Source of the DNA: Candidatus Nanohalobium constans
GTDB lineage: Archaea > Nanohalarchaeota > Nanosalinia > Nanosalinales > Nanosalinaceae
DNA length: 32,000 bases
Direction: 5' to 3'
Assembly (NCBI RefSeq): GCF_009617975.1
Contig: NZ_CP040089.1
Coordinates: forward strand, 60,001-92,000
A program made the position numbers and the translations under genes. The notes below the pieces were generated by a model. That model had not been told where the DNA came from. It saw only the letters and a program-made list of their open reading frames with translations, and searched no databases. This document shows, one piece after another, positions 3,637 to 27,309 of the stretch; within the stretch, counting starts at the first letter, position 1; each line of letters opens with the position of its first letter.

Positions 3637-5904
3637 TTAGGCGTAATAATCAGGCTGGTCGTCTTCTTCCTGGTCGATGTTGTTCATCTTCTGCGCCATC
3701 TTCCTGTACATCTCCCGATTCTCATCTGTGGCGGTAGCTCGTACATCCTCCAAGGCGTCCTCAAAGTCTTCCATTGTTGCTTCTTCACTTTCTGGATCAC
3801 TTCTCAAAGCGTTCATGCCTGCTTCACGACATACAGATTCGATATCTGAACCAACATAGTTCTCTGTCTTCTCAGCAAGTTTATCGATGTCGACATCATC
3901 GTTCAGAGGCATGTCTTCCGTGTGTACTTCGAAAATTCTCTTTCTTGCATCCTCATCTGGTATCTCAACTTCGATGTTTCTATCGATTCTTCCAGGACGC
4001 ATAATTGCCGGATCAATCATATCAGGTCGGTTCGTTGCTGCTATAACTGTTACTCCTTTCAATGATTCGATTCCATCGAGCTCTGTGAGTAGCTGGTTTA
4101 CTACTCGGTCTCCTACCTGTGAGTCTCCGCTGCTGCCGCCTCTACGCGGTGCTATCGAGTCAATCTCGTCGATGAATAGTACGCATGGTGCGACCTGCCT
4201 TGCTTTCTTGAAGATTTCTCTGACGGATTCTTCTGATTCTCCTACGTACTTCGAGAAGACTTCGGGTCCTTTGATGGAGATGAAGTTTGCGTTGGCTTCG
4301 TTTGCTACTGCTTTGGCGAGCAGAGTCTTTCCTGTTCCTGGCATTCCATACATTAGGATGCCTTTTGGTACTTCGATTCCCATGTTTTCGAATCTTTCTG
4401 GGTACTTCTGCGGCCATTCAACCATTTCCTGAAGTCTTTCTTTGGTGTCGTTGAGCCCTCCGACGTCTTCCCAGGTGACCTGTGGTACTTCAACCATTAC
4501 TTCACGCATCTGGCTTGGCTCGACATTTCTCAAGCCGTCCAGCATCGCATCTTCGTCAACTACCAGCTTCTCCAGTACTTCGCTTGGTATTTCTTCGTCC
4601 ATGTCTATTTCAGGCAATACATTTCTTAAGGTGGACATAGCTGCTTCCTTACACAGCGCTTCCAGGTCTGCCCCCACATATCCGTGTGTCAGGTCTGCTA
4701 TCTCATCTAAATCCACATCGTCTGCAAGAGGCATGTTTCTGGTGTGGATCTGGAGCACTTCTTTTCTTCCTTCTCTATTTGGTACTCCGATCTCGATTTC
4801 TCTGTCGAATCTTCCGCCACGCCGCAGTGCTGGGTCGATTGCTTCTGCACGGTTTGTTGCAGCTATGACGATGACGTTCTCTCTTGATTCTAAGCCATCC
4901 ATTTCTGATAGTAGTGTGGCGACTACTCTTCTCTCGACTTCTCCGCCTGCGTCACCTCTTTTTGGTGCGATTGCGTCGATTTCATCGATGAATATAATCG
5001 ATGGTTCGCCTTCCCGTGCTTCTTCGAACTTTTCACGGAGTTGTTTCTCACTTTCTCCGTAGTACTTGGACATTATCTCCGGTCCGTCGATCGATAGGAA
5101 GTTTGCATCTGCCTCGTTCGCAACTGCTTTAGCTAGGAGCGTTTTACCTGTTCCTGGCGGTCCTTGGAGGAGTACTCCTGATGGTGCGTCTATTCCGAGT
5201 TGTTGGAAGACTTCAGGATGTTTTAGAGGTAGTTCGATCATTTCTCTGACTTTTTGTACTTCTGATTCCAGTCCTCCGATGTCTTCGTAGGTGACCTCCG
5301 GTACTCTGACCTTTTGTTCGGTTTCCTTGACGGCTTGTTCTTTCATCTTGATTTCTGTGTTCTCTGTTATTTTGACCGGTCCTCTTGGCTTGGTCTTGAC
5401 GACTCTTAGTTTGAGTTCTGAGAAGTTGAATCTCATGTTGTCTGTCATGCCTTCAAACATGTCGTCGAAAAGTCCTCTTGGACGGTCCTGGGCATCGGGG
5501 ACTATTATGTCTCCTCTGATTACTGGGCGTCCGTTTAATCCTCTTTTCAGCATGTTTGGGTCGCTTACTTGCATTACTACTCCTTCTTCTGCAGGTGCAA
5601 GTGTTATCTGGTCTGCTTCTTCGAGTTCTGCTGGTTCTACTTCTACATGTTCCCCCAGTGAGGTTCCGGCGTTTTTCCTTGTGTAGCCGTCCATTCGTGC
5701 TATTCCGAGTCCTTTGTCCGCAGGGTAGCTTCTTGCTGCTCTTCCTACGGTTTCCCGGTTTCCTTCTATCAGTACTGCGTCTCCTTCCCGTACTCCTAGT
5801 TCTTCCATGATTTTGCTGTCTATACGAACGATGCCTTTGCCGACATCCTGTTGTGCGTTCGGAGGAACTTCTCCTACACGCAGTTTTACGCTATCTTCTC
5901 CCAT
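3637..5904 (-). CDS. cdc48: CDC48/VCP-type AAA+ ATPase
   Basis: N-terminal CDC48_N-like domain ([21 protein letters not shown]). Two AAA+ modules with Walker A GPPGTGKT / GMPGTGKT and Walker B IIFIDEID / VLFIDEID. The C-terminus ...PDYYA is HbYX-like. Confidence 0.96.
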
Positions 5905-7096: not shown

Positions 7097-7105
7097 TTTA
7101 TAAAT
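7097..7105 (+). promoter_or_regulatory. TATA-like box TTTATAAAT
   Basis: Near-consensus archaeal TATA, with 22 nt between it and ATG 7128 (centre about -27). That ATG opens a 14-codon ORF, MKSASIIGGHVLQY. Confidence 0.35.
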
Positions 7106-7361
7106 CTAAACTCTAGAGATATAGATTATGAAGTCCGCATCAATTATTGGTGGACACGTTCTGCAGTACTAATTCAGTAGTCTCAACTATATCTAAAGTT
7201 TCAACACAGATTTCTCAACTTTCTCAATCATCCAGTTCAACATTCGATTCAGTCTCAGTATCTATCTCAATTATCCTACTGCTGATTCTGACACTGCTGC
7301 TGTAATAGGCGCAGTGTTCACTTCTCGTTTTCTTGAATTCTATTTCAAGGTGAACACATCA

Positions 7362-7442
7362 ATGCAACACAAATACAACACAACTAACGCAATAGATATG
7401 TACAAAACCGTAGACACAGCTGTAAAAGGAGGTGAAAGATGA
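7362..7442 (+). CDS. candidate 26-codon upstream ORF (MQHKYNTTNAIDMYKTVDTAVKGGER), translationally coupled to the 7439 gene
   Basis: AGGTGA lies 8 nt upstream of ATG 7362. Its TGA stop (7440-7442) overlaps ATG 7439 as ATGA. Its last codons contain the GGAGGTGA SD of the downstream gene. Confidence 0.3.
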   Translation: MQHKYNTTNAIDMYKTVDTAVKGGER

Positions 7443-8086
7443 TGGCGTCAGATCAATATCGGAGCAGAGATGAAGTAGATGAAAGAGTAAGGACTGGTGC
7501 TAGGGAATATGAGGCTATTCATGGTGAACGCCCGCCAACAAATCCGAATGAGGCAGTAAGCACTAAGAATTCGTCTCCTACAGAGCACCCGGTAGAATCC
7601 ATAATGGATGATGCAGAAATCGGAGTTGCTGCTCTTTTAGACTCAGAACCTGAGGATGAAAGAATAGTAGCTGACGGCGGTTTTGAGTATCAATTAGGTT
7701 ATGAATCGGCAGATGATGTAGAGCGCCTTCAACAAAAAGCTGCTAATTATGAAGACCTGGATGTCCAGGAACACGGAGATGGAGTTATAGTTAGAGGACC
7801 GCATTCTGAAGTCAGAGAGTTCAGATCTGAGTACCGACAGTCTTTCGGCGCCCTTGATCCAGATAAGAAGAGAGATATGAGAAGTAAAAAGGTGGCAGCA
7901 GATGGTTCGGGGCTAAGAACTACTATGAGGGATGTGGACCATGGAGGTTCTGAAGAGGTCCAGTCTGTAATGGAGAGAGGGTCGGATTATACTGCTCCCG
8001 ATGTAGTAGGTACTTCCATGGGCTCGTATGAAGATGAAGGAGAGGCAACTGAAGTTGTTGATCCAGAAGGAGTAATGGGAATGTAG
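7439..8086 (+). CDS. hypothetical acidic protein (215 aa)
   Basis: Strong SD: AAAGGAGGTGAAAGATG. Acidic composition like its neighbours. No domain recognised. Confidence 0.65.
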   Translation: MMASDQYRSRDEVDERVRTGAREYEAIHGERPPTNPNEAVSTKNSSPTEHPVESIMDDAEIGVAALLDSEPEDERIVADGGFEYQLGYESADDVERLQQKAANYEDLDVQEHGDGVIVRGPHSEVREFRSEYRQSFGALDPDKKRDMRSKKVAADGSGLRTTMRDVDHGGSEEVQSVMERGSDYTAPDVVGTSMGSYEDEGEATEVVDPEGVMGM

Positions 8087-8152
8087 AAAATCCGAAGGCA
8101 ATCGGGAGATCCTTTTTAAATTCTTCTTTCTTATTTTCAGTTATGAGTTCGG

Positions 8153-8167
8153 CAATGAAGGGTGGAC
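8153..8167 (+). promoter_or_regulatory. copy 3 of the recurrent motif (CAATGAAGGGTGGAC); opens the mini-ORF MKGGRFIVGSARLR (8155-8199)
   Basis: Matches the serS and tyrS upstream motifs in ATGAARGGTGGAY. It is co-oriented with the threonine dehydratase gene about 190 nt downstream. TTTTTAAATT (8113-8122) lies upstream. Confidence 0.4.
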
Positions 8168-8356
8168 GCTTTATTGTTGGGTCCGCACGACTTCGATAAG
8201 TTTTCTAGTAGCCGAGCCTCAGCTTTATCCAATTCTGATTTGAATATTTCCGCTATCGGTATTATCTCCATTATTGGTATGATCATGGGTTAGAAGCCCC
8301 TCTGTCACAAAGTTCTTTTTTCCTCACAGGGTTTCTCTGGAGGTTCTAAATCGAAA

Positions 8357-9433
8357 ATGACACAACAAAAATACACCACAACACAACACGACTCTGCAAA
8401 ACCTGGCGAAAACATGGACAGCAGCAATGATATGATCTCGATGCAGCAGATTATGGAGGCCAGGGGGCGTATTATGGACGCAGCACATGAAACGCCGATG
8501 GACAAGTCCAGCACCTTTGCAGAGAAAGCAGGTGTAGAAAGTGTCGCTTTCAAGATGGAGAACTTCCAGAAAACAGGAGCATTCAAGATAAGAGGAGCCT
8601 ACAACAAGATATCACAGCTTTCCGAAGAAGAAAAGGAGAGGGGAGTAATAGCAGCATCATCTGGAAATCATGCACAGGGTGTGGCATTGGCAGCCCAAGA
8701 ACTTGGTGTTGATGCAAAGATAGTCATGCCCGAAAATACTGCTGAATCTAAAATTGAGGCAACATCCGGGTACGGCGCAGAAGTAGTTCTTTCAGGACAG
8801 GAATACGAAGAAGCATACGAAAAAGCCAGAAAACTACAGAAAGAAGAGAATCTAACTTTCGTTCATCCATACAATGATAAGAATGTGGTTGCTGGGCAGG
8901 GAACGCTCGGTCTTGAAATGGTTGAACAGCTCCCAGAACTTGACACAGTCCTCGTTGCTGTAGGCGGAGGAGGATTAATCAGTGGAATAGCTAGAGCAGT
9001 CAAGGCAAGAAATCCTGATGCAAAAGTCATAGGGGTTCAGACAGAGGGGTGTGGTTCAGCTAAACAGACTTTAAACTCTGATGAGATCTATGAGCGAGAA
9101 TCTGTCGATACCGTGGCGAAGGGGATAGCGACAAGAAGTATAGGTGAGCTTCCAGCTAGATATCTCCGTGAGTTTGTTGATGAAGTGGTTTATGTCTCTG
9201 ATGAAGAAGCTGAGGCTGCAACCGCTTTACTTGCCGAAAGGCAGAAAGTGGTTGTCGAGCCTGCTGGCGCGGTAGCTGCTGCAGCACTCCTATTCCAGAA
9301 AGAACACGATTTAGGATTGGAAGACGATGATGTGGCAGTCCCTCTCTGCGGCGCAAATATCGATCTTGAAGAGTTTGGTGAAATCTGTAGAAGAGGTAAG
9401 AGCTATCTTACGGAGGTGAAAAATCAATGTTAG
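8357..9433 (+). CDS. threonine ammonia-lyase / serine-threonine dehydratase (PLP-dependent, catalytic domain only)
   Basis: PLP-lysine motif TGAFKIRGA, SSGNHAQGVA, glycine loop VGGGGLISG. No C-terminal ACT-like regulatory domain. GGAGGT lies 12 nt upstream of ATG 8357; an alternative start is ATG 8414. Confidence 0.88.
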   Translation: MTQQKYTTTQHDSAKPGENMDSSNDMISMQQIMEARGRIMDAAHETPMDKSSTFAEKAGVESVAFKMENFQKTGAFKIRGAYNKISQLSEEEKERGVIAASSGNHAQGVALAAQELGVDAKIVMPENTAESKIEATSGYGAEVVLSGQEYEEAYEKARKLQKEENLTFVHPYNDKNVVAGQGTLGLEMVEQLPELDTVLVAVGGGGLISGIARAVKARNPDAKVIGVQTEGCGSAKQTLNSDEIYERESVDTVAKGIATRSIGELPARYLREFVDEVVYVSDEEAEAATALLAERQKVVVEPAGAVAAAALLFQKEHDLGLEDDDVAVPLCGANIDLEEFGEICRRGKSYLTEVKNQC

Positions 9434-16530: not shown

Positions 16531-17799
16531 TTAATCTATTTCCAAGTATTCTCTTCCGCCCATGTAGCTTTGCAGTGCTTCTGGAATTTTGATTCCTTTT
16601 TCTGTCTGGTTGTTTTCCATTATAGCAGTAATGATTCGTGGGTTTGCTAGTGCGGTGGCATAGACGGTGTACGGTGTTTTCCGGTCTCCGTCTTCGAAGA
16701 ACTGCGTGCCAAGCTTGTTAGCCTGGTAGTCTATGCAGCTTCCGTAGCTGCCGACTTCTCCGTATTCTCCTAGTGGAGGACGCCAGACTTCTATATCGTA
16801 CTGTTTGAATGTTTTGTCGCCTATATCTCCGTCGCAGATATCTACTACTCTGTAAGGTAGTCCTAGTTCCTGCATGATTTCTTCTGCGTTTTCCAGCATC
16901 CATTCTAGGTGTTCTATGTGGTTATCTGGATGAGTGAACATGAACTGTTCGACTTTCTCGAACTGGTGTACTCTCCAGAGTCCTCTGGTCTGTTTGCCGT
17001 GTTTTCCGGCTTCTCTTCGGAAGTTGGTTGAGAATCCTCCGAGTTTGAGAGGTAGTTCGCCTTCTCCGATAACTTCATCTTTCTTCATCACTGCTAAAGC
17101 GTGTTCTGCTGTTGCGATCAGGTATCGACCATTCTCGTTGACTTGGTAAAGCTGGTCTTCGAATGCCTCCATGTCGACAGCGGCACTTATGGCATCTCCT
17201 TCCAGCATATAAGGTGTTTGATGTGTCTCGAAGCCTTTTTCCTTAATGAAGTCAAGCGCAAAACTGGTTAATGCCTGGTTGAGCTGTACTAGTTCTGTTG
17301 TGAGGTAATAGGCTCTTTCCCCTCCTACTTCAGCCGCTTTTTCGCTGAGCAAGAGATTGTTTCTTTCTATTATATCTGCTGCAAGCTCTGATTCATCAGC
17401 CTTACCTTCTTCAGGCTCCCAGGTCCTAAGCTCTGGATTATCTTCCTCTCCGTCTCCTTCAGGAACTGATTCGCCAAGAAGGTTAGCGATCTCATATCTT
17501 AAACTGTCTCTTTCTTCCTTTACTTCGTCGACTCTGTCTTCAAGCTCTTGTATTTTCTGTTTGACTTCCTGCATCCGTTCTATCTTTTCTTCAGCATCTT
17601 CTCCGTTCTGTTTCGCCGCAGCTATTTCATCTCCAACAGTGTTTCTCTCCTGCTGAAGGCTTTCAAGTTCCTGCAGTTTTTCACGCCATTCTTCGTCCAG
17701 TTCGATTACTTCTTCGACTTTTCCTGGTTCTTTCCCTCTGCGTCGCTGTGAATCCTTGATTCTCTCAGGATTCTCACGGAAGACTTCGATGCTGATCAT
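16531..17799 (-). CDS. serS: seryl-tRNA synthetase
   Basis: N-terminal coiled-coil arm. Class II motif 2 region FRREAGKHGKQTRGLWRVHQFEKVE. C-terminal motif 3 region. Confidence 0.95.
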   Translation of the reverse strand: MISIEVFRENPERIKDSQRRRGKEPGKVEEVIELDEEWREKLQELESLQQERNTVGDEIAAAKQNGEDAEEKIERMQEVKQKIQELEDRVDEVKEERDSLRYEIANLLGESVPEGDGEEDNPELRTWEPEEGKADESELAADIIERNNLLLSEKAAEVGGERAYYLTTELVQLNQALTSFALDFIKEKGFETHQTPYMLEGDAISAAVDMEAFEDQLYQVNENGRYLIATAEHALAVMKKDEVIGEGELPLKLGGFSTNFRREAGKHGKQTRGLWRVHQFEKVEQFMFTHPDNHIEHLEWMLENAEEIMQELGLPYRVVDICDGDIGDKTFKQYDIEVWRPPLGEYGEVGSYGSCIDYQANKLGTQFFEDGDRKTPYTVYATALANPRIITAIMENNQTEKGIKIPEALQSYMGGREYLEID

Positions 17800-17873
17800 A
17801 AGAATTCACTTGTGAAGAAAATTTTATCTAGAACAGGTTTTAACTCAATGTTCAAAACTTTGTGTAGACGCGT

Positions 17874-17890
17874 ATCCACCTTTCATCGGT
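17874..17890 (-). promoter_or_regulatory. copy 1 of the recurrent motif (minus strand ACCGATGAAAGGTGGAT); opens the mini-ORF MKGGYASTQSFEH (17886 down to 17845)
   Basis: Lies 74 nt upstream of the serS ATG. TTAACTTTG (17909-17917) lies 22 nt upstream of the mini-ORF ATG. Confidence 0.4.
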
Positions 17891-17969
17891 AATCCAATAT
17901 TACCTATCCAAAGTTAAGTAATCTGTCCATAGGAGTGGAGTCATAAAGAAGCATCCCTAAAACTTGAGT

Positions 17970-18173
17970 ATGAAAGAAGTCGCTGGATACGAGTTTGACG
18001 AAACACATCCCACTGAGCTAAAAGAAGAAGTAGTAACTGAAAAAGAATTCGACAAGATCAAAGAAGCAATGGACCTCGACGACCTAATCCGCTTCGGCAA
18101 AAGACCATTCGACGCACCACCAGGCAAAGTAAGAATCTGGGTAGAAGAAGACGAACCAGAAGAAGAGGAATAA
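17970..18173 (+). CDS. hypothetical small acidic protein (67 aa from ATG 17970)
   Basis: ORF with acidic composition. The listed TTG at 17964 is replaced by the in-frame ATG two codons later. No domain recognised. Confidence 0.5.
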   Translation: MKEVAGYEFDETHPTELKEEVVTEKEFDKIKEAMDLDDLIRFGKRPFDAPPGKVRIWVEEDEPEEEE

Positions 18174-18248
18174 AATCGAAACTTTTCCTCTGTACTTTTC
18201 TATGTCCGGTAATCCTTCATTCAAAACCTGTTTGCGCCTTTAACTTGA

Positions 18249-19226
18249 TTATTCTGAGCTATTGCCATTAATTTTTGCCATTAACTGGGTTAGTACTTGG
18301 CTTTGCGTAACAGGAGGTTTCTCTTGTTCTTGATTCTCCAAAGGATTTTCATGAATTCTATCCATGGCGTCTTTCACAAATTCTCCTGCTTTCTCATCGG
18401 GTAGATCTTCTTTCAGTACTTCTCTATAGGCCATCATAGAAAGGGCAATGTTAGACTTAAACTCGTATTCTTGCATAATTTTCTTTTGTTTAGAGTGGTT
18501 GGAAACAGAAAACCACACAGCTACAGATACCGGTATTAAAAGCGCTATCTTTGCTATAAAAATAGTTCCTGTAGCCATTGAATCAATCTGGTTATATAGA
18601 TGCCAGGAGAAGACTATCAAAGCTGATATAGACAGAATGGATGCGCCGAGCCATGTGAAAACTGATATTCTCAAGTCCTTTTTCCTTTCGTTGAATATTG
18701 ATCCTATCTCTTCGCTTGCCTGACCCTCTACTAAATTACTGCTGGTCTCAAGTAATCGATTTGCCTTTTTCTCGAGTTCGTCTATATCTTCTTTCTTCCT
18801 TTCTATTTCTCTAATCTTTTCGGAAACTCTCTTTTCCTTTGTTGATAGTACTTGCAGTAGGCTGTCAATGCTCTCATCATAGTCTTCTTCGTCATTTAAT
18901 GTTTGATAAATTGCTTTTTCAAGCCGGATACCAGCTTGATTTAGCTCGAACATGTTTTTCTTTGTTACATTCTGTTTAAGTTTGGCGACAGCATGATTTA
19001 TTCCAGCAAGAGATTGCTGAATTTCATCATATTGACCAATTTCTTCTATTTTGCCTGTGTCTACCCAATTTTTTACCCTATCTAGATCCTCTTTTATTTT
19101 ACTTAGTTCTTGGTCTTCTATTCTATCCTTTCTCTCTTCCAAGAAAACATCAGAGTCTTCGATGTTGGCTTTAGCATCCTCCCAGTTAGAGTAGATTTCG
19201 GTTATTTGTTCAGGAGGTTCTGCCAT
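18249..19226 (-). CDS. coiled-coil protein with a C-proximal 2-TM hairpin (325 aa)
   Basis: Long Glu/Lys-rich heptad-like N-terminal half, two TM helices (FTWLGASILSISALIVFSW, IFIAKIALLIPVSVAVWFSV), then a short helical tail. GC is about 30-37% on sampled lines. Confidence 0.7.
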   Translation of the reverse strand: MAEPPEQITEIYSNWEDAKANIEDSDVFLEERKDRIEDQELSKIKEDLDRVKNWVDTGKIEEIGQYDEIQQSLAGINHAVAKLKQNVTKKNMFELNQAGIRLEKAIYQTLNDEEDYDESIDSLLQVLSTKEKRVSEKIREIERKKEDIDELEKKANRLLETSSNLVEGQASEEIGSIFNERKKDLRISVFTWLGASILSISALIVFSWHLYNQIDSMATGTIFIAKIALLIPVSVAVWFSVSNHSKQKKIMQEYEFKSNIALSMMAYREVLKEDLPDEKAGEFVKDAMDRIHENPLENQEQEKPPVTQSQVLTQLMAKINGNSSE

Positions 19227-19388
19227 GGTATCACTTACTCCAATTTTTCATACTTAATTTATTCAGTATTTTGTTAACTTATCCGCTAATATTCTAATTG
19301 CCGCTTTCTCCTACCTACTCTAGTTTATTGTTTAATCAAATTTCCCTCTGGAAATAGGTTGAAAATAAAAATGGAGAGATCGGAGATA

Positions 19389-20417
19389 TTACTCCTCAAT
19401 GTAATCTGGCTTTTCGTGCCCAATTTCTTCCAGAGGGTCAAGCAGTTTTGGGTTTTCTTTGAAGTGTTCTCTTACTGGTTCGAATCTGTCTATTACTTGG
19501 TCTGCTACTGCTTCTTTCAGGTCTAGTGGGTGTAGTTCGCCTGATTCAAAGTCTTCTGCCATTTCTTCGAATTTCTCGTAGTGTAGGTCTCCGCCGTATT
19601 CGTCCTTTCTTTCGACATGCAGTTCTCTGTCGGCGCCGAAGATGAAGACTTCTGCGATTTCGATGACTGGGTTATCTTCTACTTCGCCCTGTGGGCAGTA
19701 TGCGTCTTCAAGTGTTTCTTGGATTCTGCTTGGGTCGGCGTGGAGTGGGAACATCGTATTTTTCTTTGATGAACTCATCTTGTCTCCTTCTCCGCTTAGA
19801 GAGCTCAAGAGAGGCCAGTGCAGGCATGTAGGCTTCTCATATCCCAGTTTCGGTAGTTTTTCTCTTGCGAGCATGTGGATCTTTCTCTGATCTATTCCGG
19901 CTACTGCCAGATCCAGGTCTAGGTGTACGATATCTAGTGCTTGCATCAGAGGGTAGACGACTTGTGATGTATAGATGCTGTCCTGTTCGGATGCTACTTC
20001 GCCCATTGCTCTTTCTCCACGGGTCACGGTTGTGTTCTGTGTCATTCGGAGGATGTCGTGGAAGTACTCTGTGCTTTCCTGGAATTCTCGTCCTTTAACA
20101 TATTCTGCATCAAGTCCGCAGGCTTCAAATGTGGCTTGCCAGTAGTCGACCATGTCCTGGATCCATTCCTCATCTCCTTTCTTGTTAAGATAGGTGTGGA
20201 GGTCTGCGAATAGGATTACGGGCTGGAAGCCGGCTTTCTGTATGTCCTTCATCTTTCGGATCTGAATCCAGTGTCCGAGATGTACAGGGCCGGATGTTTC
20301 GTTGCCGATATAGGCTCTTGGCTCGTCTTTTTCTCTTAGTATTTCTTCAAGTTCTTCTTCCTGTATGATTTCCTCGGTATTTCTGAGAACCAGTTCTTTC
20401 CGTTCTTCAATATCCAT
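19389..20417 (-). CDS. tyrS: tyrosyl-tRNA synthetase, archaeal type
   Basis: HIGH-type HLGH and KMSKS-type KMSSS motifs. Colinear with my recollection of M. jannaschii TyrRS (AYIGNETSGPVHLGH, ADLHTYLN, YPLMQALD, QRKIHMLARE). Confidence 0.95.
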   Translation of the reverse strand: MDIEERKELVLRNTEEIIQEEELEEILREKDEPRAYIGNETSGPVHLGHWIQIRKMKDIQKAGFQPVILFADLHTYLNKKGDEEWIQDMVDYWQATFEACGLDAEYVKGREFQESTEYFHDILRMTQNTTVTRGERAMGEVASEQDSIYTSQVVYPLMQALDIVHLDLDLAVAGIDQRKIHMLAREKLPKLGYEKPTCLHWPLLSSLSGEGDKMSSSKKNTMFPLHADPSRIQETLEDAYCPQGEVEDNPVIEIAEVFIFGADRELHVERKDEYGGDLHYEKFEEMAEDFESGELHPLDLKEAVADQVIDRFEPVREHFKENPKLLDPLEEIGHEKPDYIEE

Positions 20418-20518
20418 GTTTTAATTCACCTGTCAGAAGGTTCGGAGAGAAGCCTTAAAGATTTAGAGCTGTGATTAGAAGATTTTGAATCAGTTGCAAA
20501 CTTGCCGAAGGTAAAAAC

Positions 20519-20535
20519 ATCCACCTTTCATTGGT
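20519..20535 (-). promoter_or_regulatory. copy 2 of the recurrent motif (minus strand ACCAATGAAAGGTGGAT); opens the mini-ORF MKGGCFYLRQVCN (20531 down to 20490)
   Basis: Lies 101 nt upstream of the tyrS ATG. TTAACTTTG (20558-20566) lies 26 nt upstream of the mini-ORF ATG. Confidence 0.4.
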
Positions 20536-20583
20536 CTTCAAGCAGGTTTTTCTTCGTCAAAGTTAAATTTGTTTCCTGCTGCC

Positions 20584-21114
20584 CTAGGGAATGATTTCTG
20601 CGTCGTCTAGAATTGTTCTGGTGGTTTCTTCATCTATGAGCATGTCGTCGATTTCGTTGAAGTCGTGGACTCCGTATTCTATTGCTGCTTCTCTTAGTTC
20701 TTCGTATTTTTCGAGTGCTCTTCTGAGTTCGGTGCCTGTTACTCTTCCTTCGTATCTTGGTTCTGATCTCTGGACATTTTTGTAGTGTTCTTCCATTGCT
20801 TCTGCGGCTTCGCCAGCTTCACTCATGAGAATCCATTCGCTACTATTTTCTCTCAGCGACGCTTTTTCTGGGTCGTCCACAAATTCGGCAGTGGAAAGAT
20901 CAGGATGTTGCGGTGAATCTTCCAGTTCGTCTAAAACTTCTCTACCCTCTTCGTATGCTGCCTGTGCAATGCTATCTAAGATATCGATGCATCTGGAGTA
21001 GTCTAGAGGTTCTAGCTCTTGCTGGTAAATCAATGCTACCTGCAGTTCTGAAGTAGCTGTTCCAAGTATTTCCTCTGCTTCACTCTTCCTAACTAAGATT
21101 TCATCAGAGTCCAT
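20584..21114 (-). CDS. hypothetical acidic protein (176 aa)
   Basis: ORF with acidic composition, between the ybaK-like gene and tyrS on the same strand. No domain recognised. Confidence 0.6.
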   Translation of the reverse strand: MDSDEILVRKSEAEEILGTATSELQVALIYQQELEPLDYSRCIDILDSIAQAAYEEGREVLDELEDSPQHPDLSTAEFVDDPEKASLRENSSEWILMSEAGEAAEAMEEHYKNVQRSEPRYEGRVTGTELRRALEKYEELREAAIEYGVHDFNEIDDMLIDEETTRTILDDAEIIP

Positions 21115-24438: not shown

Positions 24439-27237
24439 TCAGATGTCAAAAGCCTTCGCAAACTCTTTACCGCCTTGAACACTATCAGAATACTTCTCCA
24501 ACTTTTCCTCAGCGCTTTCATCTGTCTGCGATGCTGAAACAGCGCCCTTCTCACCTATCAAAGTGATACATGCCTGATGCTTGCTGGAAAGCTTCTGAGC
24601 AACTTGGATCAGCAGTCCAACGTTCTCGGTAGGCACCTCAGCTTCAACCTCTTCAAAGTCATTCTTCTCAAGTTCCTCCTCTAAGAACTCTTCAATCTGA
24701 GATTCAAGGTTTTCAACCTTCTTTTCTCTATCTTTTCTGATACTGTACAGGCTCTCGGCTGTTTCCAATGTGGTCTCTCTTCTCACCTTGCTAATTTGAG
24801 TGTCTTCGCCTAGGAAATCTGAAAGCTTTTCGATCTTCTCTTCAAATCCATCTACTTCACGCATGAACCTTTCAACTGTGTCGACAAGGTGCTCAGGTTC
24901 TACGGAGAAGACCTCACAAAGACTTCTCTGAACATTCCTGGTGTCATCCGGTATTTCTGCATCCAGCAACTTGGAAACTTCCTTAACTCTGCCCTCAACT
25001 TCTCTCTGGAACTCTCTGGCTGATTCCCCGGCTTTGTACTCTAGTCTGATAACGCCGTCCTGAATTCTCTTGCAGCCGGTGATCACGAACTCCTCTGCAT
25101 GGGAGCTCTGGGTCAGGTGTGTTCCTCCACACGCCTCGATATCTACGTCTTCAATATCGATCAGTCTGATGGTGTTTCCGGGAGGTGCACCACCCTGGTA
25201 GATCCTGAAGCCATGCTCCTGTTCAGCGTCGCTTTTTTCCATCTCCAAGACATTGATCTCATGATCTTCTTCAATTATCTCTCTGACACTGGCTTCGATC
25301 TCGTCCAGAGTTTCTCGGTCTGGTTTCTCGTAATGCGTTATATCGAGCCTGGCTTTTTCCAATGTCTTGTTTGCTCCGGCCTGATAGATATGTTCGCCGA
25401 GTTCTTCACGCGCTGCAGCATTCACCATGTGGGTCGTGGAGTGGTGCTGAGTCAACTGCTTCCTCTTCTCACCGTTGACGACGCCCTTCACACTCTGCCC
25501 TTCTTCAAGATCATGATCTGGCGCTCGATGGAGTACCACGCCCGACTGCTTCTGCACATCTTCAACCTGGAAACCATTTATTTTTCCGACATCGTGCATC
25601 TGTCCTCCGCCCTGAGGATAGAACATCGTCCTGTCCAGGACTATCCATTCGTCATCTATAACTTCCAGGATTTCTGCTTTGAAATCGAAGTTCTCAGTCT
25701 TTCCGTCTTTTCTATACGGCTCTCTTCTATCGTAGTATAGCTTTTCTGTCTCAGAAACTCCTTCAAGATCAAAGTCCTCTTCAACTTCCTGAATTGCTTC
25801 ATCTTCTTCTCCAATCTGCATGTAGAAGTCTTCAGGTACTTCAAAACCGGCTTCCTCCATCATCTCAGGAGAAACACCGTGAGACTCGTAGAGCTCAATC
25901 ATTTTCTCAACTGAAGGCTGTGATTCAAGCTCCGAAAGCTTTTTCTCGGCTTTTTCACGTGCTTTCTCGTATTTCTTCGCTTCCACTTCTAAAATTCTCT
26001 GAATCTCGTCTATCGACTCCAGAAGCTCTGGGAACATCGGCTCAAGTTCCTCAGCGTTCCATCTGGCGACCTCTGTCATCTTTAACTCCCAGTTATATTT
26101 CTCAATGAAATCCTTAGCTCTTCTGTAAATCATTCTCAGGTTATGTCCTCCACCTGTGTTTGAAGGAATCTTGCCGTCAGCCAGCGCAAAGTTAAGTGCT
26201 CTGCTGTGTTCTGCTATGCTGTAAAGTGCGGCAGCAGGCTTAATCTCGTCTTTAAGATTGTCGACATCTTCATCGATTTTCTCTGCGACTTCCTTCCATT
26301 TCTCGTCGATGTCATCTACTTCATCGATGTTGAGCTCGGAGCTGTGTGGCAGGAACTTTTCCCAGACTTCTTGATCGATTTCCAGTCCTGTTCTTTCTTT
26401 CATCTTGGAGAGGGTTTCTGGCATGACGGATTCGTAGCTGGTTTCTGTTCCTCTGCTGATCCAGGTGATTCGTTCGTGCCCCATTCCCATGTCTAGGACT
26501 TTGAGGTCGAGTTCCTCGTAGCCTTCTGGTGTCTGTTTGTAGAACATGTAGACCTGGTTCCATAGTTCTAAACCATCTACGAAGAACTCCATGCATGCTC
26601 CTAGGTTTCCTCCGCCGCCCCAGCTGTCTTCGTGCAGTATAAGTTTTTCTTCAGGAATGCCGAGTCCTTCGACTGCGAATTCGAACATGTCTCGGAAGTA
26701 TCGGTCCTGGTCGTATTTTTCAGGAGGCTGGAAGCATGTCTGACCGATCATAGTGAAATTAGTATAGTGTCTGCCTGTTATTCCTACATTATCGACATCG
26801 TTGAAACGAAGGCTTGGTTGTGGTATTATTAATTCGTCTGCGGGCGGTTCTGCTTCGCCTGATACTACGTATGGCTGGAAGCAGTAGATGCTTGCGCCTG
26901 TGAACTCTACATCGTCTCTCCAGCGTGCTACGACAGGATATCTATCGATTGAAGCGTATCCTCTGTCGTCCATGAATTCTTGGAAGAGTTCCCAGCTCTC
27001 GGTGTGTGTTAGTTCTACTTCGGTTGGTGAGTCGTTGATGAAGGTGTATCCGTCGCCGCATTCTGGTTCTCCGCAGATCTCTCGCTCCGGGTCTGAGCTC
27101 CAGAAATACAGTCTGCAGTTCTTGCACTGGCCTCGACTGAATCCTTTTTCCTTGAGTACTTCTGTGGCGAAGAATTTTTCCGGGTTCTCGCTGGCTTCTT
27201 CTTTTATCTCTTCTTTTAGCTGGTCGAGGCTCTTCAT
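24439..27237 (-). CDS. alaS: alanyl-tRNA synthetase
   Basis: 932 aa. Editing-domain motifs HHSTTH and ACGGTHL. Archaeal-type N-terminal catalytic domain. Confidence 0.96.
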   Translation of the reverse strand: MKSLDQLKEEIKEEASENPEKFFATEVLKEKGFSRGQCKNCRLYFWSSDPEREICGEPECGDGYTFINDSPTEVELTHTESWELFQEFMDDRGYASIDRYPVVARWRDDVEFTGASIYCFQPYVVSGEAEPPADELIIPQPSLRFNDVDNVGITGRHYTNFTMIGQTCFQPPEKYDQDRYFRDMFEFAVEGLGIPEEKLILHEDSWGGGGNLGACMEFFVDGLELWNQVYMFYKQTPEGYEELDLKVLDMGMGHERITWISRGTETSYESVMPETLSKMKERTGLEIDQEVWEKFLPHSSELNIDEVDDIDEKWKEVAEKIDEDVDNLKDEIKPAAALYSIAEHSRALNFALADGKIPSNTGGGHNLRMIYRRAKDFIEKYNWELKMTEVARWNAEELEPMFPELLESIDEIQRILEVEAKKYEKAREKAEKKLSELESQPSVEKMIELYESHGVSPEMMEEAGFEVPEDFYMQIGEEDEAIQEVEEDFDLEGVSETEKLYYDRREPYRKDGKTENFDFKAEILEVIDDEWIVLDRTMFYPQGGGQMHDVGKINGFQVEDVQKQSGVVLHRAPDHDLEEGQSVKGVVNGEKRKQLTQHHSTTHMVNAAAREELGEHIYQAGANKTLEKARLDITHYEKPDRETLDEIEASVREIIEEDHEINVLEMEKSDAEQEHGFRIYQGGAPPGNTIRLIDIEDVDIEACGGTHLTQSSHAEEFVITGCKRIQDGVIRLEYKAGESAREFQREVEGRVKEVSKLLDAEIPDDTRNVQRSLCEVFSVEPEHLVDTVERFMREVDGFEEKIEKLSDFLGEDTQISKVRRETTLETAESLYSIRKDREKKVENLESQIEEFLEEELEKNDFEEVEAEVPTENVGLLIQVAQKLSSKHQACITLIGEKGAVSASQTDESAEEKLEKYSDSVQGGKEFAKAFDI

Positions 27238-27309
27238 ACCCTAAAAGTATCAGAGTATTTTTTTATCAGGTTGTGGAAAAGAAGAAAGGAAAGAAAATAG
27301 GAGAAGTAT

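Follow-up and report, generated by a model that had tools for sequence, protein, structure and literature searches.

A cognate-codon leader cassette in Candidatus Nanohalobium constans and other Nanohaloarchaeota, a candidate ribosome-read sensor of amino-acid supply

Leader cassettes in the window

The window, a 32,000-nucleotide stretch of the Candidatus Nanohalobium constans genome, contains a short repeat that a first-pass annotation had located upstream of three amino-acid-related genes. On the minus strand, ACCGATGAAAGGTGGAT (17874-17890) lies 74 nt 5′ of the serS ATG (17799), and its mini-ORF (17886-17845) encodes MKGGYASTQSFEH and ends in TGA. A second minus-strand copy, ACCAATGAAAGGTGGAT (20519-20535), lies 101 nt 5′ of the tyrS ATG (20417), and its mini-ORF, MKGGCFYLRQVCN, also stops at TGA. 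The third, CAATGAAGGGTGGAC (8153-8167, plus strand), is found 189 nt 5′ of the PALP/threonine ammonia-lyase ORF (8357) of the ilvA operon, and translation from its internal ATG gives MKGGRFIVGSARLR followed by TAA. Rechecking reproduced all of these coordinates and reading frames. All three copies are intergenic and share the orientation of the downstream gene, the gene identities being assigned with Pfam. A search with ATGAARGGTGGAY allowing at most one mismatch returns three matches in the window against 0.18 expected, a number reached in 0 of 100 shuffles. The window also holds a fourth cassette, absent from the first list, at 7128-7172 on the plus strand. The features of the four leaders are as follows, where the sensor is the codon that follows the SD-like hexamer GGUGGA after two spacer codons, frame 0 is the frame of the mini-ORF, and the +1 ORF is the frame entered by a shift at the sensor.

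serS leader
16531-17799, minus strand: serS, the regulated gene, for seryl-tRNA synthetase (Pfam Seryl_tRNA_N and tRNA-synt_2b)
17909-17919, minus strand: predicted P1 TATA-like box ACTTAACTTTG, 23-33 nt 5′ of the mini-ORF ATG
17845-17886, minus strand: frame-0 mini-ORF MKGGYASTQSFEH and stop, predicted leaderless (sequence and conservation)
17875-17880, minus strand: SD-like hexamer GGUGGA, with the AGGUG core of the genome SD GGAGGUGA; assigned by its near-invariance
17869-17874, minus strand: spacer codons UAC GCG, presumed E- and P-site codons with the sensor in the A site, by analogy with prfB
17866-17868, minus strand: sensor codon UCU (Ser), which matches seryl-tRNA synthetase under the cognate rule
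17796-17867, minus strand: +1 ORF LHKVLNIELKPVLDKIFFTSEFL, from the sensor to a UGA overlapping the serS start (AUGA)
17822-17841, minus strand: conserved element AAAACCTGTTCTAGATAAAA, predicted as a probable P2 BRE/TATA; invariant in nine serS leaders

tyrS leader
20558-20568, minus strand: predicted P1 TATA-like box ATTTAACTTTG
20490-20531, minus strand: frame-0 mini-ORF MKGGCFYLRQVCN and stop
20520-20525, minus strand: GGUGGA, followed by UGU UUU
20511-20513, minus strand: sensor codon UAC (Tyr)
20426-20512, minus strand: +1 ORF, its UGA within the tyrS SD (AGGUGA), 11 nt 5′ of the tyrS ATG (20417)

ilvA-operon leader
8113-8121, plus strand: predicted TATA box TTTTTAAAT, 30 nt 5′ of the ATG at 8143
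8143-8199, plus strand: frame-0 mini-ORF from the ATG at 8143, MSSAMKGGRFIVGSARLR and stop
8161-8166, plus strand: GGUGGA, followed by CGC UUU
8173-8175, plus strand: sensor codon AUU (Ile)
8174-8293, plus strand: +1 ORF with an Ile-rich end, NISAIGIISIIGMIMG and stop; kept in orthologues
8322-8346, plus strand: predicted hairpin CCUCACAGGG/CUCUGGAGG, sequestering the SD of the operon's first ORF (ATG 8357)

Leu cassette
7097-7105, plus strand: predicted TATA box TTTATAAAT
7128-7172, plus strand: mini-ORF MKSASIIGGHVLQY and stop, predicted leaderless
7149-7154, plus strand: GGUGGA, followed by CAC GUU
7161-7163, plus strand: sensor codon CUG (Leu)
7162-7305, plus strand: +1 ORF with a Leu-rich end, SISIILLLILTLLL and stop

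Conservation and architecture of the cassette

Sequence comparison shows the ATGAAAGGTGGA repeat to be non-random and conserved. It forms the centre of a modular cassette found in leaders of N. constans and other Nanohaloarchaeota. The 285 kb of nanohaloarchaeal loci compared contain 42 copies of the strict core GGTGGA[CT]G[CT][TG]TT against ~0.3 expected, and 40 of these copies lie outside long ORFs; part of these loci had been fetched via the motif itself, and L001-L005 and L182-L191 via protein homology. The serS leader is conserved in nine loci (L001, L002, L003, L005, L168, L170, L174, L183 and L189). Five loci (L182, L183, L184, L189 and L191) have an Ile sensor (ATT or ATC) at the orthologous ilvA leader, and the same five carry the Leu cassette 5′ of the orthologous gene. 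The first-pass annotation had made its proposal depend on the motif being retained at orthologous loci, and the comparison with related loci shows that it is.

The distribution has gaps. The close relative L182 has no leader at serS or tyrS, and alaS never carried a cassette in the loci examined. Neither L185 (of the Lake Tyrrell J07AB lineage, with 32% GC) nor the haloarchaeal L186 has a cassette at glyS, at pheS or at the gene for the class-Ib aaRS. A search for homologues of the ThrRS editing domain returned distant proteins only and no more thrS leaders, so the thrS case described below rests on one contig, which contains Ns. Chance matches make up about half of the metagenome hits (L165, L171-L173, L175-L179 and L181), and scans of viral contigs with a 16-mer and a 14-mer gave only chance matches without leader features among the matches listed. 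For most target proteins other than aaRSs, NCBIfam and Pfam gave no function. The ATGAAAGGTGGA-cored mini-ORF family of nanohaloarchaea appears to be new, as no description of it was found in the literature searched.

Each cassette is predicted to be a leaderless mini-ORF with a TATA box ~30 nt 5′ of its ATG. In 37 non-redundant cassettes, TATA-like pentamers concentrate at -33 to -27 from the first in-frame ATG, including in cassettes that are extended N-terminally. First genes in N. constans are typically leaderless, with the same TATA layout elsewhere in the window, whereas internal genes use GGAGGUGA. Together, these two observations point to frame 0 as the initiating frame, and with the TATA at about -30 the transcript would begin at or a few nucleotides before the AUG, giving a leaderless mRNA. 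The earlier proposal that a TTAAC element acts as an archaeal TATA box, with transcription starting at the mini-ORF ATG, agrees with this clustering. The shared 9-mer on which it was based, TTAACTTTG, does lie 22 and 26 nt 5′ of the two aaRS-leader ATGs, but it is not enriched as a 9-mer and we now regard it as a TATA-like box of the ordinary kind.

A further element, AAAACCTGTTCTAGATAAAA, is unchanged in the nine serS leaders and resembles the alaS promoter AACCTGATAAAAAAAT at -29. It is probably a further BRE/TATA (P2) from which a leaderless serS mRNA would start, and it might pair weakly with AAAGGU; as a second promoter it would let part of the serS transcripts bypass the sensor. AAAACCU was also considered as an anti-SD against the SD of the main gene, but the pairing registers in serS and tyrS are inconsistent, and a P2 BRE/TATA as at alaS is likelier.

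The hexamer GGUGGA was previously suggested to be SD-like, and it does contain the AGGUG core of the genome SD GGAGGUGA; the actual SDs of the genome are GGAGGTGA. It is almost invariant at the nucleotide level, reading GGTGGA in most cassettes, including that of L187 at 58% GC, and GGCGGA or GGTGGC in a few. It ends 3 nt 5′ of the presumed P-site codon, or 4-5 nt when counted from the AGGUG(G) core. The two codons between it and the sensor are YRY followed by UUU, GUU, GCG or CCU; the P-site position is UUU in about two-thirds of the cassettes, and GUU, GCG (window serS), CCU and GAU also occur there. Codon 5 of the cassette is Arg or Cys (CGY/UGY). In L191, whose leader carries three sensors, the first cassette has GGUGAA, the canonical SD. 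The near-invariance of GGU GGA despite the four Gly codons, the CGY/UGY choice at codon 5 and the GGUGAA of L191 argue that the constraint acts on the RNA and not on the peptide. The 3′ end of 16S rRNA, sought for its anti-SD, was not found among the retrieved loci.

The strongest regularity concerns the codon exactly two codons after GGUGGA. In all 23 leaders that passed the filter and have an identifiable gene, this sensor is cognate to the downstream gene, whereas cognate codons at neighbouring positions of the same leaders number about zero; the filter left out L001 serS, where the sensor is also Ser, and L174 tyrS, where the rule is broken. The pairs are Ser with serS, Tyr with tyrS, Gly with glyS, Thr with thrS and Ile with the threonine-dehydratase operon, and synonymous variants occur (TCT/TCC, TAC/TAT and ATT/ATC). 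The rule was first drawn from serS, tyrS and ilvA. The glyS (GGA) and thrS (ACC) cases were found after it had been formulated, by a pattern that left the sensor codon unspecified, and the rule also holds in loci retrieved by protein homology. The position of the sensor is set by GGUGGA and not by the AUG, as seen in L187 (MSTKGGRF-G). Versions for at least Ser, Tyr, Gly, Thr, Ile, Leu, Val, Trp, Pro, His and Met were seen.

These observations bear out the earlier suggestion of a shared 5′ leader module for amino-acid-related genes, and sequence comparison supports reading it as a leader mini-ORF. Attenuation had been set aside on the ground that the peptides show no enrichment in the cognate amino acid. 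They are indeed not enriched, but one fixed position, the seventh codon at a set distance after GGUGGA, is always cognate. That dismissal overlooked this codon, as well as two features described next: a +1 frame that is open as far as the start of the gene under control, and the run of cognate codons that ends the +1 ORF of longer leaders.

The +1 frame and its interpretation

Frame 0 stops 6-57 nt (2-19 codons) past the sensor, whereas 41 of 42 cassettes keep the +1 frame open over 73 nt or more. In 15 of 18 aaRS leaders the first +1 stop falls within -13 to +12 nt of the main ATG, for which the per-leader chance is 0.02-0.13. An ATGA overlap is found at serS in the window (17796-17799), at glyS in L166 and L187 and at thrS in L169, and was read by eye at glyS in L188; five serS leaders have an ATGNTAG overlap, and at tyrS the +1 stop lies inside the SD. 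Sensor-to-ATG distances in seven of the nine serS leaders (69, 96 and 147 nt) differ by multiples of three, and in the other two (71 and 110/119 nt) the +1 frame is open into the serS start. Three aaRS leaders depart from this rule of frame. The serS leader of L001 contains a T6 run and is out by one, the tyrS leader of L174 (U_UUU_UUA) carries an extra T that puts the Tyr codon out of frame, and in the tyrS leader of L168 the +1 ORF is fused to TyrRS.

In longer leaders, the +1 ORF does not stop at a start codon but closes with a run of the sensor's amino acid. With a Leu sensor, 7-11 of the last 15 residues are Leu in six lineages (e.g., IILLLILTLLL), an Ile sensor is followed by 6-8 Ile in the tail (e.g., IISIIGMIMG), and a Val sensor by a VAVHV-type tail. 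Tandem sensors behave likewise, as Val plus Leu is followed by the tail LLDVAVAVHVLVL and the triple Ile-Val-Leu tandem in frame 0 of L191 by IIISIIVAVAVLLLV and a stop. The ilvA orthologues keep the Ile-rich tail despite different nucleotide sequences. Sensor identity predicts the composition of the tail, a check that does not depend on gene annotation. By comparison, the serS, tyrS, glyS and thrS leaders have one cognate codon and none in their +1 ORFs.

Folding gave little sign of a structured RNA. No Rfam family reached its gathering score in the window, and nothing relevant appeared at E up to 10 in 17700-20700. Minimum free energy z-scores of six leaders ranged from -1.0 to +1.5, so that they fold no better than shuffles. 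RNAalifold on the nine serS leaders, a covariation analysis that the first-pass annotation had asked for, gave -1.2 kcal/mol with no compensatory pair; the sole consensus pairing is a weak, invariant GAAAGGU:ACCUGUUC, which offers no variation to evaluate. The earlier idea of an RNA element is not supported in the sense of a structured RNA or riboswitch, given the missing Rfam match, the z-scores near zero and the lack of covariation. A hairpin between GGUGGA and the sensor region, predicted in several leaders, was rejected as a defining feature because its registers are inconsistent. Folding of the serS and tyrS leaders revealed no attenuator-type or SD-sequestering hairpin. A hairpin sequestering the SD is predicted in three ilvA leaders of different sequence (the window, L183 with z -2.7, and L184), and the tail codons of the Leu cassette form the 5′ arm of a predicted hairpin (z -2.3) that precedes a U-rich tract.

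The reading we favour, and consider reasonably probable, is that the motif forms the core of a codon-programmed amino-acid sensor read by the ribosome, in which shortage of the cognate aminoacyl-tRNA would provoke a +1 frameshift and the +1 ORF would couple to the downstream gene. With charged cognate tRNA in good supply, the sensor would be read in frame and translation would terminate early, at a distance from the gene. Scarcity of that tRNA would leave the A site empty at the sensor codon, and the SD-like element 4-5 nt behind the P-site codon could pair with the 3′ end of 16S rRNA and favour a +1 shift. As the P-site codon is not always slippery (GCG, GUU, CCU and GAU), any shift at those codons would have to take place without re-pairing. 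The shifted ribosome would then read the +1 ORF. In aaRS leaders it may re-initiate at the overlapping start codon, a termination-reinitiation event, whereas in leaders of the Leu/Ile/Val type a second stall on the cognate tail may remodel downstream hairpins that sequester the SD or resemble terminators. The outcome would be that limitation of its own charged tRNA raises the level of SerRS (or, in the other leaders, of TyrRS, GlyRS, ThrRS or the operon product), with tandem sensors acting as OR gates. The junction peptides expected across the two frames are MKGGYA|LHKVLNIELKPVLDK for serS and MKGGCF|TFGKFATDSK for tyrS. Slightly better than even, in our judgement, is the chance that Nanohaloarchaeota possess a class of re-programmable specifier-codon frameshift switches, where one A-site sense codon would select the shortage that diverts ribosomes into the +1 ORF, activating the gene by termination-reinitiation or by a second attenuation step. 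Several observations weigh against the frameshift reading: P-site codons that are not slippery, the GUG within GGUGGA as a possible start of the +1 ORF, the probable P2 promoter at serS, the three deviating aaRS leaders, the absence of the leader from serS and tyrS in L182 and from alaS, and the lack of a known function for most targets other than aaRSs. We know of no demonstration of SD-stimulated frameshifting with archaeal ribosomes.

The same features might arise without frameshifting from two overlapping uORFs, the AUG ORF holding the sensor and the long +1 ORF starting at the GUG in GGUGGA and being either coupled to the gene or equipped with a cognate-rich tail; a stall in the former would modulate the second ORF or the fate of the mRNA. 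A GUG is indeed present in the +1 frame in essentially all cassettes, a gene caller set the start of the 242-aa ORF of L188 on the internal GUG, and the C/U variation following GGUGGA is synonymous in the GUG frame (GAC/GAU, Asp). We nevertheless judge this unlikely, as the internal GUG has no SD upstream and is not 5′-terminal, unlike the leaderless first genes and the GGAGGUGA-led internal genes. Moreover, the GUG is 7-11 nt upstream of the sensor and would be hidden under a ribosome stalled there, silencing the long ORF in starvation, the opposite of what aaRS and biosynthetic genes would need, and the model gives no reason for tandem same-frame sensors that feed one tail. Alternatively, the leader peptide could act by stalling only, a pause at the single cognate codon near the 5′ end blocking 5′-3′ decay or melting structure, with the open +1 frame as a by-product. 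Such an arrangement fits the sensor-codon rule and the leaderless layout, would draw on the weak local hairpins predicted between GGUGGA and the sensor region, and has a precedent in the leaderless Cys-sORF attenuators of mycobacteria (bioRxiv 10.1101/834739). It is rather improbable, however, because it leaves unexplained the +1 stops on start codons, the frame kept over insertions of 27 and 51 nt and the restriction of cognate tails to the +1 frame, and there is no stable or covarying structure in the leaders for it to use.

The remaining explanations concern DNA, tRNA binding or coincidence. A promoter with a transcription-factor operator for amino-acid-related genes, the small ORFs being incidental, had been entertained at the outset; the motif lies at or just 3′ of the predicted transcription start, and the combination of AACCTG with TATA is found repeatedly in leaders and also at alaS. 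An operator cannot, however, account for a fixed triplet that obeys the genetic code for the gene's amino acid through synonymous changes, that is always in frame with the 5′ ATG and that is accompanied by stop-codon avoidance specific to one frame, and these features make it a very improbable and clearly not the best explanation. Still less credit is due to a T-box-like RNA binding tRNA directly, by specifier codon-anticodon pairing and UGGA-NCCA pairing with the 3′ end. AAAGGUGGAUACGCG is superficially like AGGGUGGUACCGCG of the T-box, and the leaders do have a codon of the specifier type, yet there is no T-box or other Rfam match even at E up to 10, no Stem I and no conserved structure. The 6 nt between UGGA and the codon would leave too little room for a tRNA. 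UGGA shows no covariation across the Ser, Tyr, Gly and Thr leaders and reads CGGA in L001, and the codon without exception shares its frame with a 5′ AUG. Finally, short ORFs arise easily, and the likeness could be fortuitous or reflect genuine small MKGG proteins acting in trans. The enrichment of more than 100-fold and the retention of the motif at orthologous loci across genomes of 38-58% GC speak against chance, and peptides past the cassette are not conserved between families, conservation being at the nucleotide and not the amino-acid level, so we assign this last possibility a negligible likelihood.

Significance and relation to known systems

N. constans is a DPANN symbiont that must import all amino acids (PMC7443923). 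No ribosome-mediated or leader-peptide attenuation in Archaea was found in the literature searched. To our knowledge, T-boxes are absent from Archaea, and next to nothing is known of how these organisms adjust the expression of aaRS and amino-acid-related genes to tRNA charging. If the favoured frameshift sensor is correct, hungry-codon frameshifting would for the first time have a natural regulatory role, Archaea would have their first ribosome-mediated system of amino-acid attenuation, and the T-box would have a functional counterpart that works through the ribosome. With ~21 nt plus an open +1 frame, and a specificity held in one codon, the cassette could become a portable biosensor of amino acids or tRNA charging for archaeal synthetic biology. 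It also flags about a dozen uncharacterised nanohaloarchaeal genes as potentially responsive to the supply of Leu, Val, Ile, Trp, Pro or His, and its ORFs are currently missed or mis-started by gene callers.

The closest structural parallel is the autoregulatory site of bacterial prfB (release factor 2), AGGGGG-UAU-CUU-UGA-C, where an internal SD-like element drives a programmed +1 frameshift (PMC5009743). The cassettes likewise have an SD-like element a few nucleotides 5′ of the P-site codon, a YRY codon in the E site, an often U-rich and possibly shift-prone P-site codon, an A-site codon whose presumably slow decoding would report on the factor that reads it, and a predicted productive continuation in the +1 frame, open in 41 of 42 cases. 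In prfB the A-site codon is a stop codon and the shift occurs inside the gene. In the cassettes, which are archaeal and whose frameshifting is predicted from sequence, it is a sense codon matched to the gene, with at least 10 specificities; the proposed shift would take place in a leaderless upstream mini-ORF, and its output would be coupling or attenuation and not protein completion, with L168 tyrS and the 242-aa ORF of L188 as possible exceptions. A +1 shift provoked by a slow A-site sense codon is also known from hungry-codon frameshifting (Gallant/Weiss), Ty1 (CUU-AGG-C) and Ty3 (GCG-AGU-U), and Ty3 uses a GCG P-site codon without re-pairing, similar to the window serS leader (GCG-UCU). 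Those cases are laboratory starvation artefacts or fixed-ratio devices, whereas the cassette codon is systematically matched to the gene; a 2016 review in NAR knew of no natural starvation-specific use of such frameshifting (PMC5009743).

With T-boxes (RF00230) the cassettes share the control of aaRS genes and amino-acid operons and a single specifier codon (23/23) that can be re-targeted by a codon change. They differ in having no tRNA-binding fold, Stem I/specifier loop, antiterminator or Rfam match, and their codon is in frame for reading by the ribosome, so that the charged A-site tRNA would presumably be sensed instead of the uncharged one. As in trpL, leuL, ilvL and hisL, a short upstream ORF would be translated first, and leaders of the Leu/Ile/Val type (7128-7305 and 8143-8293 in the window) have cognate runs followed by predicted hairpins and U-tracts or SD-sequestering stems; the leaderless initiation predicted for the cassettes is shared with the poly-Cys sORF attenuators of mycobacteria (bioRxiv 10.1101/834739). 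Unlike in classical attenuators, the cognate run lies in the +1 frame and would be gated by one frame-0 sensor codon, and the aaRS leaders have a single cognate codon and no run.

Downstream, the +1 stops at aaRS starts (ATGA and ATGNTAG) have the geometry that is tightly coupled in Haloferax volcanii (Huber et al. 2019, PMC6728339; PMC10666635), and haloarchaea are known to couple genes with ATGA or TGATG overlaps by termination-reinitiation (PMC6728339, PMC10666635). The upstream partner differs, being a uORF of non-coding type that would be reached only after a change of frame. Upstream, the cassette resembles archaeal leaderless transcripts, with its TATA at -33 to -27 from the ATG.

The cassette and its copies in the window

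On re-check, the sequences, coordinates and mini-ORFs that the first-pass annotation had reported upstream of serS, tyrS and the threonine-dehydratase (ilvA) operon were all correct. The motif is non-random: three copies of ATGAARGGTGGAY lie in the 32-kb window, where 0.18 would be expected, and none of the shuffles contains as many. Every copy is intergenic and oriented like the gene downstream, as claimed. A fourth cassette had not been listed.

16531-17799, minus: seryl-tRNA synthetase (serS; Pfam)
19389-20417, minus: tyrosyl-tRNA synthetase (tyrS; Pfam)
8357-9433, plus: PALP enzyme (Pfam)
7097-7305, plus: fourth cassette (mini-ORF 7128-7172), with TATA box TTTATAAAT and leaderless ORF MKSASIIGGHVLQY ending in a stop

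The PALP enzyme matches the threonine ammonia-lyase of Candidatus Nanohalobium constans at 100% identity. Its gene is the first of an operon that also encodes chorismate mutase, prephenate dehydratase, an aminotransferase and prephenate dehydrogenase. N. constans is a cultivated DPANN nanohaloarchaeon described as incapable of its own amino-acid synthesis (PMC7443923). The fourth cassette, with the core GGTGGA-CAC-GTT-CTG (CTG being Leu), precedes a small ORF (7364-7441, MQHKYNTTN...) and a 215-aa protein without known function (7439-8086). It is kept in L182, L183, L184, L189 and L191 (L-numbers denote other loci or contigs compared, mostly nanohaloarchaeal).

A Thr/His-rich peptide recurs at the starts of ORFs behind long leaders (MTQQKYTTTQHD, MQHKYNTTN, MTQYNTTTPQY and MTTTHNQHTTHD; window 8357-8415 and 7364-7441, L182 17649, L191 14813-14851). 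It may serve as another leader or sensor peptide, or as an N terminus that enhances translation; the Pfam domain of the threonine ammonia-lyase begins only at residue 41. Elsewhere in the window, the CDC48/AAA ATPase (3637-5904) has 755 aa, whereas its orthologue in L184 (1799-5686, minus) reaches 1295 aa and contains an intein (PF14890).

Each cassette consists of a start codon, 1-14 codons, GGU GGA, a YRY codon (CGY, UGY, UAC or CAC), UUU (more rarely GUU, GCG, CCU or GAU) and one sensor codon. Against ~0.3 expected by chance, 285 kb of nanohaloarchaeal DNA contain 42 matches to the strict core GGTGGA[CT]G[CT][TG]TT, 40 of them outside long ORFs. The constraint is on nucleotides and not on the peptide: Gly-Gly is nearly always encoded GGU GGA, even at 58% GC, and the next residue is Arg or Cys by turns. 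GGUGGA contains the AGGUG core of the N. constans SD (GGAGGUGA), and one cassette has the canonical GGUGAA. In 37 non-redundant cassettes, TATA-like pentamers are concentrated at -33 to -27 from the first in-frame ATG, which bears out the earlier reading of TTAACTTTG as a TATA box. This is the geometry of leaderless first genes in the N. constans genome, and therefore the mini-ORF frame (frame 0) is the expected ribosome start frame.

Sensor codons and the +1 frame

Read in frame, codon 7 of the mini-ORFs is TCT (Ser) in all serS leaders, TAC (Tyr) in both tyrS leaders and ATT (Ile) in the threonine-dehydratase leader. The rule was fixed from these leaders before further data were added, and then tested in three ways. 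A metagenome scan with the pattern CCAATGAAAGGTGGAN{31,61}AAAAYCT, which leaves the sensor codon unspecified, returned glycyl-tRNA synthetase leaders carrying GGA (Gly; gene identity by TIGR00389, 295 bits), a leader carrying ACC (Thr) before an archaeal ThrRS editing domain (PF08915), and more serS and tyrS leaders with the synonymous TCC and TAT. Loci fetched by protein homology, without use of the motif, gave a Gly sensor again at glyS (L187, from a 58%-GC genome, and L188), a Ser sensor at serS (L183, L189) and an Ile sensor, ATT or ATC, at the threonine-dehydratase operon (L182, L183, L184, L189, L191). In a position scan, the cognate residue stood at the sensor position in 23 of 23 annotated leaders and essentially nowhere else.

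The sensor position is set by GGUGGA and not by the AUG, as in L187 (MSTKGGRF-G) or the ilvA leaders (MNSA..SGGRF-M-GGCF-I), where a Met sensor is the first of tandem cassettes. The rule fails in one leader, that of L174 tyrS (5825-5860, plus), where one extra T (GGTGGA CGT TTT TTA TCT) puts the Tyr codon (TAT) out of frame, leaves the long ORF in the -1 frame and yields U_UUU_UUA, a canonical slippery heptamer for -1 shifts. Possible explanations are a fault in the assembly, decay of the leader or a -1 variant.

Frame 0 meets its stop codon 6-57 nt past the sensor, and in 41 of 42 cassettes the +1 frame has no stop for 73 nt or more. Among aminoacyl-tRNA synthetase (aaRS) leaders, the first +1 stop falls within -13 to +12 nt of the gene ATG in 15 of 18 (per-leader chance 0.02-0.13). 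It forms AUGA overlaps in the window serS (17799-17796), thrS and three of four glyS leaders (L166, L187 and L188, the last read by eye and additional to the 15 of 18), AUGNUAG in five serS leaders, and lies inside the SD at tyrS. Among serS leaders, the spacings of 69, 96 and 147 nt between sensor and ATG are multiples of three apart. Three leaders do not fit: L001 serS, with a T6 run and a frame that is off by one; L174 tyrS; and L168 tyrS, whose +1 ORF continues in frame into TyrRS.

Behind the CUG (Leu) sensor of the fourth cassette, the +1 ORF (7162-7305) ends in SISIILLLILTLLL and a stop (IILLLILTLLL), and behind the AUU sensor of the ilvA leader it ends in ISAIGIISIIGMIMG and a stop (8174-8293). 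Across lineages, Leu sensors have 7-11 Leu among the last 15 residues of the +1 tail, Ile sensors 6-8 Ile in the tail, Val sensors VAVHV-type tails, and Val+Leu tandem sensors the tail LLDVAVAVHVLVL. In L191, the leaderless ORF MRIIPSSASNSGECFIRGGCFVQGGRVLEQ combines three sensors in one frame (Ile, Val and Leu, 15 nt apart) and is followed by the +1 tail IIISIIVAVAVLLLV. Sensors are readable in frame 0 only and cognate tails in +1 only, and this match is annotation-independent confirmation that both frames matter.

Additional sensors lie upstream of uncharacterised proteins.

L188 1380-1740, minus: two Trp (TGG) cassettes
L169 150-320, minus: two Pro cassettes (CCT, then CCA)
L180 1-340, minus: His (CAT) cassette MKGGYDH..., leader of ~300 nt ending GGAGGTGGACTGTGGTG; the contig does not reach the regulated gene

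The first Trp cassette is leaderless, and its +1 ORF ends in NFSW and a stop. The second lies where an acidic 242-aa protein (702-1430) begins, which is encoded wholly +1 to the short ORF MESTENYSTSEAREQGGRFWKP; this is possibly a frameshift inside a coding gene. The gene after that of the acidic protein, an M20/ArgE-DapE-type deacylase, is joined by an ATGA overlap. The two Pro cassettes form a two-step cascade, as frame 0 of the second coincides with the +1 frame of the first; the contig stops short of the regulated gene. Downstream of a Val cassette, L174 (9100-9430, minus) has three small ORFs chained by overlapping stop and start codons (MKNDHDTT..., MMRKIADLF... and the 95-aa MAESARTAEMYRGG...), with no functions assigned.

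Distribution and alternative explanations

The motif is conserved in relatives, as expected of the shared leader module first proposed: it lies upstream of serS in nanohaloarchaeal L001, L002, L003 and L005, located by SerRS (75% identity to the window in L001; ~60% in the others, 59% in L002), and upstream of tyrS too in L001. Similarity between the window and L001 leaders sets in abruptly at ACCAATG and runs through the entire leader. The distribution of the motif is patchy. L182, a close Nanohalobium relative, has short leaderless-type promoters and no cassette at serS and tyrS (19353-19442 and 20756-20800, minus), yet keeps cassettes of the Leu, Met+Ile and Val types; gains and losses therefore occur gene by gene. 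The cassette was never present at the alaS loci examined, and neither L185 (a 32%-GC Lake Tyrrell lineage) nor L186 (a haloarchaeon) has any. The L002 contig (JBLGBK010000002.1), labelled 'MAG: Colwellia polaris', bears a nanohaloarchaeal-type alaS/serS locus with cassette and is probably mis-binned or mislabelled.

The first-pass annotation had also considered a transcription-factor site or an RNA element. A pure DNA operator cannot account for in-frame triplets that follow the genetic code, and within the reach of Rfam, folding and covariation analysis a T-box-like RNA or another structured RNA is ruled out. The +1 ORF could instead start at the GUG within GGUGGA, but this codon lacks an SD and is not 5'-terminal, and a ribosome stalled at the sensor would cover it, giving the wrong regulatory sign.

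The serS leader contains a further conserved element, AAAACCTGTTCTAGATAAAA (17841-17822), that closely resembles the alaS promoter.

27238-27309, minus: alaS upstream region, AACCTGATAAAAAAAT 29 nt before the ATG (alaS, 24439-27237)

The likeness suggests a common BRE/TATA or regulator site, and AAAACCTGTTCTAGATAAAA is probably a second promoter for a sensor-independent leaderless serS mRNA, to which the cassette would add an inducible component.

Proposed mechanism and known systems

The cassette has the same order of elements as the bacterial prfB site (AGGGGG-UAU-CUU-UGA-C): an SD-like element, a YRY spacer, a mostly U-rich P-site codon, a presumably rate-limiting A-site codon and a productive +1 frame. 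In yeast Ty1 and Ty3, a slowly decoded sense codon drives the +1 shift; Ty3 has GCG in the P site, as does the window serS leader. Because of the match to prfB and the resemblance to Ty1/Ty3, and starting from the established statistics of frame, codon and promoter, we infer the steps that follow from an empty A site. Scarce cognate aminoacyl-tRNA would leave the A site empty at the sensor and favour a +1 shift, though +1 re-pairing is not possible for all P-site codons; with ample tRNA, the sensor would be decoded in frame and translation would terminate early. In aaRS leaders the shifted ribosome would terminate at the start codon of the gene, a geometry that in Haloferax volcanii couples termination tightly to reinitiation (PMC6728339, PMC10666635). 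In Leu/Ile/Val-type leaders it would encounter a run of those scarce codons shortly before predicted hairpins: in three ilvA leaders of differing sequence a stem that sequesters the SD, and in the Leu leader a tail hairpin with U-tract. Cognate-codon tails with such predicted hairpins look like a second, classical attenuation step.

Full-text literature searches found no account of such an element, and we therefore regard the cassettes as a real, highly unusual regulatory family. A 2021 review of archaeal recoding lists one case, a -1 shift (PMC8211752), and a 2016 NAR review knew of no natural starvation-specific use of hungry-codon frameshifting (PMC5009743). At the least, the family represents a new form of ribosome-mediated attenuation, archaeal and governed by a single specifier codon; most probably, programmed +1 frameshifting is put to a new use here. 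Among leaderless uORFs, the mycobacterial poly-Cys attenuator (bioRxiv 10.1101/834739) comes closest.
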